Part shown: positions 27,577-34,227 of the stretch, piece after piece
Position numbering within the stretch: the first letter of the stretch is position 1
Layout: each line of letters starts with the position of its first letter
Source of the DNA: an uncultured archaeon
Lineage (GTDB): Archaea > Altiarchaeota > Altiarchaeia > JAFGQM01
Direction of reading: 5' to 3'
Assembly: GCA_964619365.1 (NCBI GenBank)
Contig: CAZUDQ010000004.1
Coordinates: 1 to 64,000 of the forward strand
DNA: 64,000 bases
Notes under the pieces: generated by a model
Database searches by the model: none
What the model saw: the letters and a program-made list of their open reading frames with translations, nothing else
What the model was told of the DNA's origin: nothing
Program-made: the position numbers and the translations under genes

Positions 27577-30489
27577 TTATTTTGAGTAAGATATGAAAAT
27601 CTGTGCTCCTTCTATTTCAGTTTTGCTCTTTAAATCCTTTGGGTCGATTTTATCAAGTTCTATTGCACTCGCGCCTGTTGCCTGTGCTATCTCAGTTTCT
27701 CTTTTCTTTATTAGTTTAAGCAGTTTCTCATCTCCGTCAAACCTAAGAACGATTTTTTCTGAAACATCAAGCCCCTCCTTTTTGCGCATGACTTGTATCT
27801 GCCTTAACAAGTCGCGGAGCATACCCTCTTGTATCGCCTCAGGACTCCTGATTTTTGATATCATGATGCGCCCGCTTGAGAACTCCTTTATCACCGGGGC
27901 GTTTGGTTCCTTGTTTGAGAATGCGACCTCATTTACATTTGCCATATTTTCAATTACTTCCCTTACCGTCTCTAGCTTCTCTTTCGTGTCAACTGTAAGT
28001 GCATCAAGCGGCCAGCGCAGTTTGATTCCAGCTTCATCGCGCGCGGCATTACTTGCCTCGACGATTTCTTTTGCAAATTGCATCTCGCGCTCAAGTGAAG
28101 CATCAATCTCAAAGTTGATTTCCGGCCAGCCTGATAAGAAAACAGAGTCGCCCCCCTCTAAGTCGCGGTGTATGTATTCAGCAATAAACGGCGCAAAAGG
28201 TGCAATCATGCGCGCAGTCTTTGCTATAGCATACCACAATGTCGCAATTGCTGCGTCTTTGTCTTCTCCAGTGGCTGAGACCCAGGTCCTGTCCCTTATT
28301 ATCTTGATATACCAGCGGGACAAGTCGTTTAATATGAAGTCTTCAATAGCTTTTGAGGCGCCGAATGGAAGGCAGGCATCAAACCCATCTTTTACCAATT
28401 TCTCAACAGAAGCCAGTCTTGATAAAATCCACTTGTCCTCTGGTTTAAGGAAGTCCCGTAATCCTTCTATATCGACTACGCCCGCTTCAGAATAAGTCTT
28501 TGCAAATTGGTAGCAGTTCCAAAGGGTGTTCATAAGCCGGAAAGTTATCTTGACATCGTCTGCGTTGAATTTTAATTTTTCCCAAACTTCTGATTCTGAA
28601 ACAAGGTAGAATCTTGTGATATCCGCGCCATACTTTTCCATGACCTCGTAAGGCGAAGTGACGTTGTTTAAGGACTTACTCATCTTGTCCCCTTTCTTAT
28701 CAAGCACCCATTCGTTCATGAGGATTGTCTTAAACGGAGTTTTCCCAAACATGATTATGCCTTCAAGCATAAGGGTGTAAAACCATCCCCTAGTTTGGTC
28801 AAGACCTTCTGTTATAAAGTCCATTGGGAAGAACTTGGTAAAAGGTTCTTTTTCCTTAGGATAATTCATCCCGGCCCAAGTTGCAGCACCAGATTCAAAC
28901 CAGATATCTGTTATATCAGGTACCCGAGTCATTTCTTTTTGGCAATCAGGACAGCTAAGTTTTATCTTATTGGTATAAGGAACATGTAAATCTGGCTCAC
29001 CCTCAGGCATCTCTATTGCCTTTTCCTTTAACTCTTCAAAGGAACCGATTACTTCACGCGCGCCGCAGGAACATTCCCAAATTGGGAGAGGTATCCCCCA
29101 AAACCTCTGGCGGGATATGCACCAGTCGCGTGCTTCTTTTATCCAATTGGAAAAGCGCTTTTCACCTGCCCAGTCCGGATTCCATGTAACTTTCTTGTTC
29201 TCAGAAATCATCAAATCTTTGACTTTTCCGACATTGATGAACCACTGGGGCGAGGCTCGTGTAATAATTGGGGTCTTGCAGCGCCAGCAATGCGCGCAGC
29301 GGTGCGTTATCTTTTGCTTTCCGGCAATGGCACCGCGATTTTCTAATTCTTCGATTACAATAGGATTTGCTTTCTTGACATAAACGCCCTCAAGCTTCCC
29401 GCCTTCCTTTGTGTAACATCCGTTCTCTCCAACTGGCGAAAATGGCGGAAGACCGTATTTCATACCAACAGAATAATCGTCAAGCCCGTGGCCGGGTGCC
29501 GTGTGTACACAACCCGTCCCGTCTTCAAGAGTTACAAAATCCCCCAGAAGGATACTGTGTGTGGCAGGAGCCTCTTTTTCAATCTCCTTATTTTCAGGAA
29601 TCCAGTCAGGAAGTATAAACTCGTATCCTACCCCCTCAAGCTCTTTTCCTTGCTTTATACTGTCTTCAAGAATCTCATAATCCCCATCTTCTATCTCACA
29701 AGCTTCCATTACCTGCGGGACTAACTCCTTTGCCATAAGCCACTTTTCATCGCGCGGAACTGAGACCAGACAATATTCATATTTTGGATTAAGTGTAACA
29801 CCAAGGTTTGAAGGAAGCGTCCAAGGTGTTGTTGTCCAGATTAGGACAAATTCACCAGGCCTCTCCTTAAGCGGGAACTTGACATAAACAGAGTCATCAG
29901 TCACGTCACGGTATTCGTCTGTTGCCTCGTAGCCGGCAAGCGCCGTCTGGCAGCGCGGACACCAGGCTGTTGATGCCTTGCCCTTGTAAAGAAGACCATC
30001 CTCCTCACATTTCTTGAAAAACGCCCAGGACGAACTTATATAACTGTTATCAAGAGTCTTATAAGGATGCTCAAAATCCCAGTGCATGCCAAAACGTTTG
30101 TAGAACTCAGTAAATACGTCAACTGTTTCAAGTGCGCGGGTACGGCAGATGTCAATAAATTTTTCTGCGCCATAATCCCAGATATCTTCTTTTCGCTTAA
30201 GACCAAGCTCCTCTTCTACCTTGATTTCAATTGGAAGTCCATGGCAGTCATAACCCGGCTGAAGATTTACGTCTTTTCCTAGCATCACCTGATACTTTAA
30301 AATCGGGTCGCGAATAGCGCGCGTCCTTGCGTGGCCCATATGGGGGTTCCCATTCATATATGGAGGTCCGTCTAAGAAGAAGAACTTCTCACCTGCTTCA
30401 TTTGCTTTTTTTATCTTCTCAAAAAGCCCTAATTTATCCCAGTACTCCGAAATCTCCTTTTCGATTTCAAGGGGTCTAAACGGTTCCAC
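27577..30489 (-). CDS. ileS: Isoleucine--tRNA ligase
   Basis: DGPPY.NG.PHMGH, WTTTPWTLP, GTG.VH.APGHG, DWCISRQR.WG, EGLDQTRGWF, KMSKS; GTG start. Confidence 0.97.
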   Translation of the reverse strand: MEPFRPLEIEKEISEYWDKLGLFEKIKKANEAGEKFFFLDGPPYMNGNPHMGHARTRAIRDPILKYQVMLGKDVNLQPGYDCHGLPIEIKVEEELGLKRKEDIWDYGAEKFIDICRTRALETVDVFTEFYKRFGMHWDFEHPYKTLDNSYISSSWAFFKKCEEDGLLYKGKASTAWCPRCQTALAGYEATDEYRDVTDDSVYVKFPLKERPGEFVLIWTTTPWTLPSNLGVTLNPKYEYCLVSVPRDEKWLMAKELVPQVMEACEIEDGDYEILEDSIKQGKELEGVGYEFILPDWIPENKEIEKEAPATHSILLGDFVTLEDGTGCVHTAPGHGLDDYSVGMKYGLPPFSPVGENGCYTKEGGKLEGVYVKKANPIVIEELENRGAIAGKQKITHRCAHCWRCKTPIITRASPQWFINVGKVKDLMISENKKVTWNPDWAGEKRFSNWIKEARDWCISRQRFWGIPLPIWECSCGAREVIGSFEELKEKAIEMPEGEPDLHVPYTNKIKLSCPDCQKEMTRVPDITDIWFESGAATWAGMNYPKEKEPFTKFFPMDFITEGLDQTRGWFYTLMLEGIIMFGKTPFKTILMNEWVLDKKGDKMSKSLNNVTSPYEVMEKYGADITRFYLVSESEVWEKLKFNADDVKITFRLMNTLWNCYQFAKTYSEAGVVDIEGLRDFLKPEDKWILSRLASVEKLVKDGFDACLPFGASKAIEDFILNDLSRWYIKIIRDRTWVSATGEDKDAAIATLWYAIAKTARMIAPFAPFIAEYIHRDLEGGDSVFLSGWPEINFEIDASLEREMQFAKEIVEASNAARDEAGIKLRWPLDALTVDTKEKLETVREVIENMANVNEVAFSNKEPNAPVIKEFSSGRIMISKIRSPEAIQEGMLRDLLRQIQVMRKKEGLDVSEKIVLRFDGDEKLLKLIKKRETEIAQATGASAIELDKIDPKDLKSKTEIEGAQIFISYSK

Positions 30490-30620
30490 GATTCGTTCCT
30501 TAGATATTCTTTAGATAATAGAGAATCTTAAGGGTTATTTTTGGCGATTATTGGATAAAAGTTAAAATAGCAAGGTAGGGGTGCTCTTATCTAGTGCAAT
30601 AGCTACCCCCTTTTAAAAAT

Positions 30621-30808
30621 AAGATGGGCCTAATGGGATGTTAAGGTGGATGCAACGCTATGGCATATGACCTTAACAGAGATTAGGACCATCGGGCATA
30701 AGCTAAGAAAAAAGAAGATGAGCCTAATGGGACCTTGAGGTGGATGCATTGCCAATACCCATGACCTTAACAGATATTAGGGCCATTGCTACTAAGGGTG
30801 TAAAAAAT
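30621..30808 (-). repeat. Two 94-nt tandem hairpin units, each carrying a copy of the tRNA-Ile 3' end and trailer
   Basis: aagatg[g/a]gcctaatggga at 30621, 30715 and 30809 (the last is the tRNA 3' end); the two units align without gaps, 69/94 identical. Confidence 0.9.
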
Positions 30809-30812
30809 AAGA

Positions 30813-30957
30813 TGGGCCTAATGGGATTTGAACCCATGACATCTGGCTAGCTCAGAGCTTTCGACTCCATTCTTGGGAATCTCAAAACAGACGCGTGGAT
30901 TTACCACACGCATGCTCGTATAAGACCAGCGCTCTAACCAAGCTGAGCTATAGGCCC
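30813..30957 (-). tRNA. tRNA-Ile(TAT) with 70-nt intron at 37/38 (intron 30849-30918)
   Basis: GGGCCTA/TAGGCCC acceptor, GCTC/GAGC D stem, CTGGT-CTTATA|A-GCCAG, ATGGG-TTCAAAT-CCCAT; bulge-helix-bulge CTTA/TGAG flanked by GAGC/GCTC. Confidence 0.92.
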
Positions 30958-30977
30958 ACAAAAATGCCTAATATCAA

Positions 30978-31110
30978 AAAGTAAGATTTTCTTATTTTCC
31001 AACGTTTGCTTATCTTGGGTTGCATAGCAACCCGACCATACTCCTCCGGTATCTCGGAGAAAGTAAGATTTTCTTACTTTTTGTTTTGCTCATCCCTCGG
31101 ATATCCGAGG
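30978..31110. repeat. Duplicated 21-bp palindrome (AAAGTAAGA-TTT-TCTTA[C/T]TTT) plus three GC-rich hairpins
   Basis: Copies at 30978-30998 and 31060-31080; hairpins 31017-31033 and 31044-31059; perfect palindrome 31095-31110. Confidence 0.75.
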
Positions 31111-31283
31111 CTTCTTATTTTGAGCCAAACTATTAAAAAACAAAACAAAATACCAACAAAGTACAAAAAACTCTCCAGGGCAGCTAAAAGTTACAGCTTT
31201 AGGCGACTCGTTTCACTCTTTCTTATAGGCTGTTTCATCACAAAGAATATAGAATCAGTTAAAAGAATTCAAATTTTAAGCAA

Positions 31284-32960
31284 ATGAACACAAACAAATC
31301 TAAAGCGACACTTGCGGTTTTTTTGTTGTCGGCCTTTTTAGTCGCATCACAATCCGCAATTGGATCAACAAGCGGAGCGCAGACGCCAACGAGTCTGATT
31401 ATCGACTTTTCGATAACTCCTTCAGACACAGAACTTGAACCAGGTGAAAGCAACATAATAAATGTTGCAATAAAAAACACAGGTGGTCAGCCCGCCGAAG
31501 CTGTAAAGCTTACTGTAAGCGGTACTGGGAGTGTGATTGCAGGAGGGGGCTATTATATCGGAGACATTCCTGCGGGAGACACAAAGACAGTCCCAATAAC
31601 CGTCCGCGCATCAACTTCACCCCAAACAAGATTAAGCAGAGTCAATGTAATGATATACTACACAGGCTTTGATTCAAATGGAAATTCTGACAGGACTTAT
31701 GACAACTGGCAGATACCTGTTTTTGTAGATATCCCCTCCATGTTCTCAGTCGAGACAAGTACAAACACGCTTTTTGAAGGGGCACCAATCCCAGTAACAT
31801 TTTCATTATCCCCTTCAGATAACGCATTTAGTGTTTATGCAGAATTCGAATCGGATTGTGCAACGGTAATTGGTTCATCAAAAGTGTTTTTAGGCGATAT
31901 TGTGGCCTTAACAAACGCCAATGACGAGCTTATCCCAGCTAAAGACGTCACCTTTGCATTGAGTCCAACAGGTTCAGATTCTTGTACTGGCAACTTAAAG
32001 CTTGACTACATAACAAAAGCAGGGTCAAACGCCAATGACGAGATTCCAATAGGCTTTAGTATCGGGGACTCTCCAGTCGATTTTAAGATTACGGGTGTCA
32101 ACTACTCGACAATCGTTCCTGGCGGAACAACAGACCTTGAAATAACCCTCAAAAACGGGGGGAGTTTTACTGCAGAGGACACTACAATCTCCTTTGAATT
32201 AAAAGACCCGTTTGTCCCTATAGAAAGCTCTGAAGTCTATATTGGGGACGTCGCACCTGATGAAACTGTCACAGCAGACTTTAAGATGGGTGTAACTTGG
32301 GACGCAGAAACAACCATATACTCAATGACCTTTAACATCTGTTACAAGCTTACAGGCACTGAGGTCTGTCAGGAAAAAATGATAGGTGTTGACGTGGTGG
32401 GTGACATAATCCTTGAGATTATCGGCACAAGTTCCACGTCATCAGGACTTAGTGTTGAAGTTGCAAATCTTGGGACAAGAAGTGCAGATGCCATCGTTGC
32501 AACATATTACTCTGGAAATCAGGGAGCGACAACAGGAGAGTTCCCAACGACACAAAGGTCTGATTTTTCAGGAAAACAGAACTCAAACACTACAAGACCC
32601 AGTTCCGCACCCGAATCTGATATGCCCAGTGGAAATGGTATTGTGGACTACAAGTCAGACATAAAGGCGGGAAATCAAGGAACCTTTACGTTTACTGGCG
32701 CATCATCAACCGAAGGTGGAACGGTAGTTTTTGAGTATACTGGAGCAGGAAACCAAAGAATCACCCAAGTCGAGACCTTACCTTCCTCAAGTGGCGGCTC
32801 TTCAGCCACGACAGGTGACATGAATGCAAAACGCTCTTCTAGTGGCGGATTTGGACTTGTAGAAATAGCTATAATAATAGTTGTCGTAATAACCCTCTAC
32901 TATGCGTACAGGAAAAAATATTTCGATAGGTTCTTAAAGAGGGAAAAAGGTTCTGAGTAA
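31284..32960 (+). CDS. COG1361-type S-layer domain surface protein
   Basis: Signal peptide, repeated PG...I..KN.G...A Ig-like modules (YIGDI..G..KTV), C-terminal TM anchor; precedes an ABC permease/ATPase. Confidence 0.8.
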   Translation: MNTNKSKATLAVFLLSAFLVASQSAIGSTSGAQTPTSLIIDFSITPSDTELEPGESNIINVAIKNTGGQPAEAVKLTVSGTGSVIAGGGYYIGDIPAGDTKTVPITVRASTSPQTRLSRVNVMIYYTGFDSNGNSDRTYDNWQIPVFVDIPSMFSVETSTNTLFEGAPIPVTFSLSPSDNAFSVYAEFESDCATVIGSSKVFLGDIVALTNANDELIPAKDVTFALSPTGSDSCTGNLKLDYITKAGSNANDEIPIGFSIGDSPVDFKITGVNYSTIVPGGTTDLEITLKNGGSFTAEDTTISFELKDPFVPIESSEVYIGDVAPDETVTADFKMGVTWDAETTIYSMTFNICYKLTGTEVCQEKMIGVDVVGDIILEIIGTSSTSSGLSVEVANLGTRSADAIVATYYSGNQGATTGEFPTTQRSDFSGKQNSNTTRPSSAPESDMPSGNGIVDYKSDIKAGNQGTFTFTGASSTEGGTVVFEYTGAGNQRITQVETLPSSSGGSSATTGDMNAKRSSSGGFGLVEIAIIIVVVITLYYAYRKKYFDRFLKREKGSE

Positions 32961-32991
32961 TTAGTCGGGCCTTTTCCAAAAAATAACTGCC

Positions 32992-34227
32992 ATGTCAACA
33001 ACGCTAAACATCGCCGTCAGAAATATAACGCGCCATAAGGCAAGAAGTGCACTTACAATATTTGGAATACTTGTGGGTATCGGTCTTGTTATGGTACTTG
33101 GTGGCATAACTGAAGGGCTTAATCAGCAACTTCAGGACCAGTTCCAAAACATGGCTGCGACAATTACAGTTTCAGACTCAGGTGGTGACGGTATTGATGA
33201 CGATGTGGTTGAGGAGATTCGTGGCATACCTGGTGTCGAGAGTGTTGTTGAAACAGGGACTTATAATATAGAGCGAAATGTTCGGGGCAATGAGATGGGC
33301 TTTGGCACCAAAAGCGGAGGCATAATGATGGATGCCGGACGCATGCCTGGCGAAGGCTCCTTTGGTGTTTCAATAACTTTTACAGCAATACCAACAGAAG
33401 AGTTCTCAAGTATTGTAAGTGACGAGATAGGAGTACTAAGCGGTCGCAAATTAGAAGGGTCTGACGAAGGTACAAATTATGTGGTTTTGGGTTATAGCTT
33501 AGCAGAGGCCCAGGGATTAAATGTTGGCGATGAAATTGAGTACATCCGCGAGATTAAAAAATCCCAGATTGATGAAGATGAAACAAGAGAGGAAACTCAT
33601 TATTTTGAAGTAGTAGGCATTCTTGAAGAAGCGGATTCAGATGATATTGATAAGGCAGCATACGTTCCCCTTGACACCATGCAAAATATTGAGGAGGATG
33701 ACAAAATATCAAAGCTAGTAGTAACAGTAACTGATGTGGATGTGGTTGAGGAGATATCTGAAGAAATTGAGAACAGGGTTGATGATGTTTCTGTGCGCTC
33801 TGCAATAACAATGGTTCGCCAACTCGAATCGATGCTTGGCGGTGTTCAATTAGCACTTCTTGGAATTGGCGCAGTTGCAGTCTTTGTCGGCGGCCTTGGA
33901 ATAATAAACACTATGCTTACTTCAGTCATGGAAAGAAGGCGAGATATGGGTGTTATGAAAGCGGTTGGCGCAACTGAAAAGATGATTCTTTCCCAAGTGA
34001 TAACTGAAGCCGTCATAATGAGTCTTATCGGAGGTATTGGCGGAATATTAATAGGGTACATTGCAGAGCGGACAATGCCCGGGATTATAGGTATGGATGT
34101 TGTTATGTCACCCTTCTTGGTAATACTGGGACTTGGGTTTGCAGTACTCTTAGGTGTTTTCTCTGGAATTTATCCTGCCCATCAAGCATCAAAATTAGAT
34201 CCAGTGGAGGTGTTGGCATATGAATAA
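32992..34227 (+). CDS. ABC transporter permease (MacB/FtsX family)
   Basis: RSALTIFGI.VG, VGGLGIINTMLTSVMERRRDMGVMKAVGA, GIYPA..AS.LDPVE.L. Confidence 0.93.
   Translation: MSTTLNIAVRNITRHKARSALTIFGILVGIGLVMVLGGITEGLNQQLQDQFQNMAATITVSDSGGDGIDDDVVEEIRGIPGVESVVETGTYNIERNVRGNEMGFGTKSGGIMMDAGRMPGEGSFGVSITFTAIPTEEFSSIVSDEIGVLSGRKLEGSDEGTNYVVLGYSLAEAQGLNVGDEIEYIREIKKSQIDEDETREETHYFEVVGILEEADSDDIDKAAYVPLDTMQNIEEDDKISKLVVTVTDVDVVEEISEEIENRVDDVSVRSAITMVRQLESMLGGVQLALLGIGAVAVFVGGLGIINTMLTSVMERRRDMGVMKAVGATEKMILSQVITEAVIMSLIGGIGGILIGYIAERTMPGIIGMDVVMSPFLVILGLGFAVLLGVFSGIYPAHQASKLDPVEVLAYE

Follow-up and report, generated by a model that had tools for sequence, protein, structure and literature searches.

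In folded single-strand recombination sites, such as the attC sites of integrons and the attP(+) hairpin of the CTX phage, one DNA strand folds upon itself to form a duplex image of the target, and integration proceeds by one strand exchange followed by replication. Small insertion elements and attachment-site scars at tRNA genes are also familiar. Here we describe a small repeated unit present in a 64,000-nt stretch of DNA (the window; positions 1 to 64,000 of contig CAZUDQ010000004.1, GenBank assembly GCA_964619365.1, from an uncultured member of the Altiarchaeota), where two copies with a period of 94 nt lie between the gene for tRNA-Ile(UAU) and ileS. Each unit joins a constant hairpin core to one direct and one inverted copy of the end of its target tRNA, a combination that is found at about 22 tRNA species and is apparently undescribed. 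We lean towards the view that the units are a lineage-specific, non-coding hairpin element acting at the DNA level, either a non-autonomous insertion element or an attachment-site module, aimed at the 3' ends of tRNA genes.

The units resemble attC and the CTX attP(+) in several respects: they are imperfect palindromes in which structure is kept more than sequence and pairing is held by compensatory change, the stem has a mismatch or asymmetric loop and is a duplex image of the chromosomal target, both arms lie, as after integration, side by side next to a copy of the target, and small gene cassettes, often toxin-antitoxin pairs, are found beside the sites (on folded single-strand recombination sites of integrons and the CTX phage, see PMC4792948 and PMC3442271). 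They differ from them in targeting the 3' ends of many tRNA genes, with arms re-matched to each, in having as their conserved part the apical hairpin rather than the outer boxes, and in that no tyrosine recombinase was matched in four of five unit-family genomes (63-87% complete). Attachment-site duplications in tRNA genes, with the T-loop as sublocation, share with the units a direct repeat of the 3' part of the tRNA, an intact tRNA gene and flanked islands, but between the unit repeats there are only about 80 nt of non-coding DNA in a fixed geometry that includes an inverted copy of the target, and there is no adjacent integrase. The repeats downstream of E. coli tyrT are likewise tandem, lie behind a tRNA gene and each carry a 3'-terminal segment of the tRNA; these form a single locus, whereas the units have a core module in common that recurs at one tRNA gene in three and throughout a family of genomes. 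Finally, MITEs (miniature transposable elements with inverted repeats), REP/REPIN sequences and the palindromes associated with IS200/IS605 elements (reviewed in PMC10969869) are, like the units, small, non-coding, multi-copy, hairpin-forming, lineage-specific and presumably moved in trans. The units, however, lack the shared terminal inverted repeats and the short target-site duplication of MITEs and have locus-specific outer arms; unlike MITEs and REP sequences, they are strictly targeted to tRNA gene ends; and their core is unrelated to the end hairpins of a Y1 element in a relative of the same genus, in contrast to what an IS200/IS605 palindrome would require. No description of such units was found among the listings and abstract openings returned by full-text literature searches.

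A unit common to many tRNA genes

On the minus strand of the window, the tRNA-Ile(UAU) gene (30813-30957) is followed by the two 94-nt units, a spacer of about 130 nt and a 970-aa open reading frame (ORF; 27577-30489), whose identity as isoleucyl-tRNA synthetase (IleRS) is indicated by its nearest Atlas clusters, which are Ile-tRNA ligases labelled Iainarchaeota. A preliminary description of this DNA had pointed out the periodicity, and it is reproduced here: Tandem Repeats Finder reports 30615-30826 with a period of 94, 2.3 copies, 77% matches, 0% indels and a score of 249, a repeat search returns two 94-nt copies at 73% identity (69/94), and a 30-nt block made of the tRNA end and its trailer occurs in three in-register copies with spacings of 94 and 94 and identities of 100/83/93%. 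The features are given below, with the borders of units 1 and 2 in the phase of that description; R1 is a covariance model of the core hairpin, built from 13 aligned units of this genome.

30813-30957, minus: tRNA-Ile(UAU) gene (Rfam RF00005, 58.5 bits, E 2.8e-11)
30813-30826, minus: block A, the 3' end of tRNA-Ile (from about position 61 to the discriminator), repeated by the units
30801-30812, minus: T-rich trailer behind tRNA-Ile, recurring after every copy of A (30708-30718 and 30615-30624)
30715-30808, minus: unit 1, decayed, the long hairpin not being its minimum-energy fold; R1 match at 30726-30781, 50.6 bits
30788-30796, minus: TTAGC-type motif of unit 1, CTTAGTAGC; the motif is common to the aligned units and to relatives
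30776-30786, minus: arm A' of unit 1, ATGGCCCTAAT, which apart from one mismatch at its centre is the reverse complement of the tRNA 3' end and of one base of the trailer
30738-30767, minus: core hairpin of unit 1, 30 nt, AGGTCAT ... TCCACCT, matched by R1
30719-30732, minus: copy of the tRNA 3' end in unit 1 (A1), TCCCATTAGGCTCA
30621-30714, minus: unit 2, intact, a long three-helix hairpin; R1 match at 30632-30687, 61.5 bits
30693-30707, minus: TTAGC-type motif of unit 2, CTTAGCTTATGCCCG
30682-30693, minus: arm A' of unit 2, GATGGTCCTAAT
30644-30673, minus: core hairpin of unit 2, 30 nt, which with its flanks gives a perfect 9-bp stem, TGTTAAGGT/ACCTTAACA
30625-30638, minus: copy of the tRNA 3' end in unit 2 (A2), TCCCATTAGGCCCA, followed by trailer (30615-30624)
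27577-30489, minus: ileS, 970 aa, a neighbour only and outside the element; its linkage to the units is not conserved

According to Rfam, the anticodon loop of the tRNA holds a 71-nt insert, an intron; ARAGORN overlooks the gene without its intron mode and, with it, miscalls the gene as Gln(CUG).

When the units were used as queries on their own genome (G000; 1.2 Mb, 17 contigs, 85% complete), weaker matches were found beside other tRNA genes, and the same design was present at each: a core of the form AGGTCAT-N16-TCCACCT and then, after 3-5 nt, a repeated 3' end that belongs in each case to the upstream tRNA. R1 has 15 matches of at least 35.7 bits in this genome, together with a half copy (22.6 bits), a decayed copy (20.7 bits) and three matches near 14 bits. 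Of the strong matches, all on the tRNA strand, one is at a contig end with a Ser-type A and the rest lie downstream of tRNA genes, which make up 12 of the 34 that ARAGORN calls (Ala-GGC, Arg-UCG, Arg-UCU, Gly-UCC, Gly-GCC, Ser-GGA, Ser-UGA, Ile-UAU, Glu-UUC, Val-GAC, Lys-UUU and Thr-GGU). In relatives, about 22 tRNA species carry units. The specificity for tRNA-Ile, IleRS or an ileS leader that the preliminary description had proposed does not survive this distribution, and the position of the units before ileS is incidental. Among the options of that description, attachment-site duplications, listed there as a mundane alternative, come closest to the present findings. The Ser-UGA array runs off the ends of two contigs (C8:53395-53696 and C14:11500-11762), where its repeats probably broke the assembly.

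At E <= 1e-4, R1 has matches in seven of the eight genomes of the family to which this archaeon belongs (f1, own genome included), with 4-13 in each relative, and in 0/53 genomes of the phylum's other eight families, 61 genomes having been searched in all; the only member of the family with no match, G003, is 79% complete. These copy numbers, 15 strong matches here and 4-13 per relative, are those of a small, non-coding, multi-copy element with presence/absence differences, by which MITEs are recognized. The DNA of the window also occurs in salt-lake metagenomes (7 DNA runs), and a strict pattern scan of metagenome contigs gave 51 stretches, among which R1 confirms seven strong matches (at least 51 bits) on six contigs. 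Variant units of the same layout and size with a different core hairpin (e.g. CAAAGAG...CTCTTTG) were seen at L069 (G002), L056 (G007) and L237, the different cores belonging to the Ile unit of G002, the Ser unit of G007 and the first Gly unit of L237; R1 therefore undercounts the unit family.

Arms, core and pairing

Candidates were gathered with a regular expression from the own genome, six relatives and metagenome contigs; 68 of the 76 were kept on the energy of the outer-stem duplex (< -9 kcal/mol), and removal of four false ones inside a tRNA or ORF left 64 units. On the tRNA strand the order of parts is T-rich trailer, TTAGC-type motif, arm A', a short spacer, the core, 3-5 nt, and A. 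A' comprises 11-13 nt and is the reverse complement of a stretch of the adjoining tRNA gene that begins at position 64, includes the discriminator and reaches into the trailer; the core is a conserved imperfect hairpin (AGGTCAT...TCCACCT), 30 nt long in 56 of the 64 units; and A is a copy of the tRNA 3' end that starts at the boundary of T-loop and T-stem. The dimensions are narrowly set, with a median A-to-A period of 92 nt (36 of 55 measured within 91-94) and, for the Ile locus in six genomes, 77-80 nt between the discriminator and the end of the core. By medians over the 55 of 64 units for which an upstream copy was found, the direct repeat begins about 3 nt behind the core, with the TCCC of the T-stem, and ends about 23 nt behind it; the target block repeated by the units is about 20 nt, the tRNA gene is left intact, and some 80 nt of non-coding DNA separate the repeats. 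An archaeal bulge-helix-bulge intron in the T-loop was considered as an alternative and dropped, since inspection of the Ile units by eye gave no arrangement of two 3-nt bulges, 4 bp apart, at the boundaries.

The origin of the arm was examined in 37 units lying 25-70 nt behind an intact tRNA, by comparison with two references, the reverse complement of the 3' region and the 5' context of the same tRNA. Identity to the reverse complement is found at positions 64 and 65 in 0.92 and 0.95 of these units, at positions 66-72 in 0.59-0.89, at the discriminator (position 73) in 0.84 and at the first trailer base in 0.81. The lowest values (0.59 and 0.65) fall at acceptor pairs 3 and 4, and many units therefore have a central mismatch there. 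With the 5' context of the tRNA the agreement is poor immediately beyond the acceptor strand, at 0.43 for -1, 0.35 for position 8 and 0.05 for position 9. The arm is thus an inverted image of the 3' end of the gene, including bases that are not part of the tRNA, and neither a copy of the 5' end nor a mimic of the mature tRNA; an internally deleted copy of the tRNA gene was ruled out since the arm is not copied from the 5' end. That the outer arm is complementary to the 3' strand of the acceptor, as the preliminary description had seen, is accordingly confirmed, whereas its suggestion of mature-tRNA mimicry is not, because the stem pairs the discriminator and trailer bases and it is therefore the gene that is copied. 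G3:U70 is retained in 0/4 tRNA-Ala units. An arm pairs with the A copy of its own unit at a mean of -19.3 kcal/mol, versus -14.1 with the A copies of other units. It is closer to the upstream A in 33 units and to the downstream A in 16, with 15 ties (n=64), a comparison made over unequal windows of 42 vs 30 nt.

The two units of the window differ in how well they fold. Unit 2, with its perfect 9-nt arms TGTTAAGGT/ACCTTAACA at 30639-30647 and 30670-30678, folds at -27.3 kcal/mol (z -5.84), as good a value being reached by 0/200 shuffles; the minimum-energy fold of unit 1 is at -15.2 kcal/mol (z +1.47), with 188/200 shuffles as good. The statement that each unit folds into a long hairpin consequently holds for unit 2 and fails for unit 1, which had itself been called degenerate in the preliminary description. 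Separate orthologues of units 1 and 2 in other genera could not be demonstrated, pairwise identities being 0.56-0.77 with no clear pairing.

Across units, the core stem is constrained. Among the 13 own units, 85.5% of core-stem cells pair, compared with 76.3% in shuffles, 0/500 of which reach the observed value, and slid-partner controls pair at 23-44%; five of the nine core-stem pairs change on both sides. Over the 64 units, Watson-Crick pairs fill 517 of the 576 cells of the core stem and its 5-bp extension, and the columns contain several pair types each. A structured RNA would usually have G-U pairs on its own strand and few A-C pairs. In the core stem of the 64 units the top strand has 13 G-T against 14 A-C, and for the outer stem the G-T counts of the two strands are 95 (top) and 101 (bottom); the bottom strand gives the better minimum-energy fold in 48 of 68 candidates, and the wobble counts are equal on both strands. 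Because the wobble pairs have no strand bias and trailer bases are paired, we read the hairpin, from sequence comparison, as a DNA-level feature.

Turnover, nesting and islands

Units come and go between close relatives. The tRNA-Ile(UAU) locus of six related genomes was found in the following states:

G004: interval between tRNA-Ile(UAU) and ileS empty, the ileS ATG lying 16 nt after the discriminator
G007: interval between tRNA-Ile(UAU) and ileS of about 80 nt, with no unit
G006: one unit, then a gene pair (PIN and MazE-like) on the other strand, before ileS
G001: one unit, followed by other genes
G002: one unit, with another hairpin of equal size as its core
G005: a single unit

A conserved unit between tRNA-Ile and ileS, as earlier supposed, is thus contradicted by an interval with no unit in two of the six genomes and by unrelated genes that intervene in others. 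At a more distant IleRS locus (66% identity), R1 has no match in 4,977 nt; there, the 700 nt upstream of the gene were read by eye. Conversely, G001, from the same genus, has units behind tRNA-His, Asp, Ile-GAU and Val-UAC, all of which are unit-free here. Near-identical tandem units also exist, for example the Val units of G002.

The junction of core and A takes further insertions. In L065, L053:10296 and L275 a palindrome of 57-65 nt sits exactly there, and in G007 (L255) a Gly-type unit with its own A copy is nested at the core/A junction of a Thr-type unit. The palindrome is a second small element of these relatives, a twin hairpin of 57-65 nt that starts with CACGA and ends with CTCG(C/T)G (L065, L053:10296-10420 and L275); pieces similar to it were also seen in L223 and L228.

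Larger pieces of DNA are bounded by units or their parts as well. Behind tRNA-Arg(UCG) (C2:124665-129676, L022) there is a full unit, then 4.8 kb, a half unit that starts inside the core, and an A copy; the 4.8-kb island encodes two thioredoxins, a ferredoxin-thioredoxin reductase subunit, an ABC-type ATPase, a CobW/HypB-type GTPase, a SLAC1-type channel and a CoA-binding regulator. The gene for tRNA-Gly(UCC) is duplicated (C2:106005-108085), each copy having the trailer and the first half of a unit, with 1.9 kb between them that holds a 619-aa Cys-rich protein on the opposite strand. At tRNA-Tyr, a 321-aa ORF is followed by an A copy, 1.06 kb downstream of the tRNA. In G007, two small ORFs with no Pfam match lie between units at tRNA-Ser and are followed by a tRNA fragment that starts in the T-loop and runs to the 3' end, and in L204 HicB-like and ParE genes adjoin a unit. 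Within the islands examined there was no recombinase gene.

Other repeats are present in these intergenic regions. Runs of GTCT-type heptamers (e.g. CAGTCTACAGTCC) occur in several intergenic gaps, beside units or not, in L221, L223, L228 and L056, and are nearly lacking in the own genome, with 2 chance-like instances; they were considered as terminal repeats of cassettes and dropped, since they are present in several other intergenic gaps of L221. A 25-nt palindromic repeat (core AAAGTAAGATTTTCTTACTTT) occurs twice just upstream of tRNA-Ile, at 30975-30999 and 31059-31083, and also upstream of tRNA-Val(GAC) on contig C7; metagenome contig depth at this repeat is about 10x that of its flanks, and it is therefore a multi-copy element. 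In G002, a dense iteron-like array of TGTAGCGTAAC (C38, about 24.3-25.3 kb, L060) has in its neighbourhood genes for a tyrosine recombinase, a type II restriction-modification fusion and a KaiC-like ATPase; this region may be an integrated plasmid or virus.

Insertion element, RNA gene or scar

Several properties of the units bear directly on their nature: they are tied to tRNA genes in general, they combine locus-specific arms with a shared core, their sites are found both filled and empty, and their core/A junction receives insertions. Under the insertion-element reading that we lean towards, the element would enter a tRNA gene, or a copy inserted before, at the point where T-loop and T-stem meet, and would regenerate the tRNA end, and repeated entry, or unequal exchange between A copies, could build arrays with a period of about 92-94 nt. 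Entry would probably be by way of a folded single strand (or a circle) made of A, trailer, motif, A' and core, in which A' would pair with A to form a duplex image of the target and the core hairpin would serve as a protein-recognition module at one end. One strand exchange inside A, followed by replication, would then leave the observed order of tRNA-A, trailer, motif, A', core and A. The recombinase would be some enzyme encoded elsewhere than near the units, and the arms themselves could have originated in fold-back priming at breaks, a process that can create short inverted duplications (bioRxiv 10.1101/2024.03.07.583931). A more specific proposal strikes us as doubtful, namely that arm, core and copy form a hairpin serving as a guide module or a folded single-strand attachment site, by which a recombinase is brought to the end of the very tRNA gene mirrored by the arm pair.

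Profile searches for recombinases covered G000, G001, G002, G004 and G006, the genomes of the family being 63-87% complete. PF00589 was matched in G002 only, in three tyrosine recombinase genes that are not next to units; one of these integrases is on a contig with five units, among housekeeping genes and about 8 kb from the nearest unit. Y1_Tnp was matched in three of the five genomes (G001, G004 and G006), and the TnpB domain over the cut-off in G006 only. Incomplete bins usually lack plasmids and viruses.

A number of observations weigh against an insertion element. PF00589 has no match in G000, G001, G004 and G006 (80-87% complete), although the control found it in 14/14 reference genomes, and Cas1, the IS110 transposase and resolvase have no match over the cut-off in any of the five genomes. 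A Y1 element of the IS200/IS605 type was rejected as the source, the end hairpins of the one G001 element read being different from the core. A free form was not found on viral contigs: a loose pattern gave at least 120 stretches, with a best R1 score of 18.4 bits among the 80 scored, and the strict pattern gave three, the best at 14.9 bits, with no true match in either set. Contigs from four metagenome runs over 29900-31500 have no joints and no copy-number variants, at a depth of about 3-6, and one metagenome contig spans 30132-30868 unchanged. The energy filter dropped eight candidates, including three real units of the own genome (Arg-UCG, Ile unit 1 and Lys), and the outer-stem figures consequently lean towards pairing. 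Finally, the re-making of the arm for each new tRNA lacks an explanation under this model, and the co-orientation with the tRNA, the T-run after every A and the promoter-like motif fit an RNA gene too.

It is rather unlikely, though worth serious thought, that the units are small structured RNA genes, transcribed by read-through from the tRNA or from a start of their own behind the TTAGC-type motif. The product would be a hairpin RNA with the tRNA's own 3' end as its tail, or the full hairpin of arm, core and copy, and it might, in the service of the cell or of a mobile element, be guide and scaffold in one for a nuclease or recombinase, or a module for processing or termination. This would account for a hairpin that covaries, for a core kept across genera of differing G+C (0.45-0.68 for R1 matches on metagenome contigs, 0.43 for the window), for the T-run at the end of every unit and for its position on the tRNA strand, and the TTAGC-type motif does resemble the AAATTAGCGC-type motif found about 20-30 nt upstream of many of the 34 tRNA genes. 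By analogy, a conserved scaffold beside a locus-specific stretch recalls guide RNAs, and in the bridge RNA of IS110 elements a conserved scaffold similarly adjoins target-pairing stretches that covary with the target; the unit, however, is far smaller and known here from DNA alone, and an IS110-type gene over the cut-off is present in 0/5 genomes. Several further points are awkward for an RNA gene: the wobble pairs have no strand bias (13 vs 14 and 95 vs 101), some copies have decayed (unit 1, z +1.47), units are gained and lost between close relatives and have other elements nested inside them, the core is only 30 nt, and the own genome has no TnpB-like gene over the cut-off. There is also no Rfam family for the units, as a search of 29000-33000 against Rfam 15 at E <= 1 returned the tRNA itself and a 9.5-bit chance tmRNA fragment. 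Besides the AAATTAGCGC-type motif, a TTTTTAAT-type block is often found about 50 nt upstream of tRNA genes of this genome, and the two are probably a promoter or leader signature of this lineage.

The units could also be passive scars, that is, attL/attR remnants of plasmid or virus integrations into tRNA genes that were multiplied by unequal crossing-over; the core would then be a former arm-type binding site and the complementarity of the arm would be without function. In favour of this, the direct repeat extends from the T-loop/T-stem boundary to a few bases past the tRNA end, as in a classical integrase sublocation, gene islands are flanked by A copies, G002 has its three tyrosine recombinase genes, and near-identical tandem copies such as the G002 Val units occur. 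But a fixed 30-nt core with a period of 91-94 nt at about 22 tRNA species would be unexpected of scars, as would complementarity of arm and stem with compensatory changes, and an inverted arm has no place in a double-stranded attP. We regard purely passive scars as improbable.

That the units are tRNA-Ile mimics, which bind IleRS, regulate an ileS leader, or are processed, CCA-tailed and charged like tRNAs, is hardly credible: here the outer stem is acceptor-like, ends near the discriminator and sits between tRNA-Ile and ileS, but units also follow 11 other tRNA genes of this genome, the locus is empty in G004 and G007 and has a toxin-antitoxin-like pair between unit and ileS in G006, R1 has no match in the 4,977 nt at the 66%-identical IleRS locus, the stem pairs trailer bases as well as the discriminator (0.84 of 37 units), there is no anticodon arm and G3:U70 is found in 0/4 Ala units, and, unlike the thrS-type operator, the units have neither a conserved linkage to a cognate synthetase nor synthetase identity elements.

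For annotators of such genomes, the units are a source of error, since they add surplus 3' ends of tRNAs, can be taken for regulatory leaders and interrupt assemblies, as where the Ser array ends two contigs. Their setting is an archaeal phylum that has been little studied and whose genomes are very small. Should the target be defined by the arm pair, the units would be a natural case in which a target is chosen by an image of its sequence rather than by protein specificity, and this would also account for the way in which small cassettes, among them toxin-antitoxin pairs and redox genes, are acquired next to tRNA genes in these genomes. If the hairpin does direct a recombinase to the tRNA gene that its arm pair mirrors, these DPANN archaea would possess a re-targetable insertion system, programmed by base pairing, for which tRNA ends serve as landing pads for small gene cassettes.

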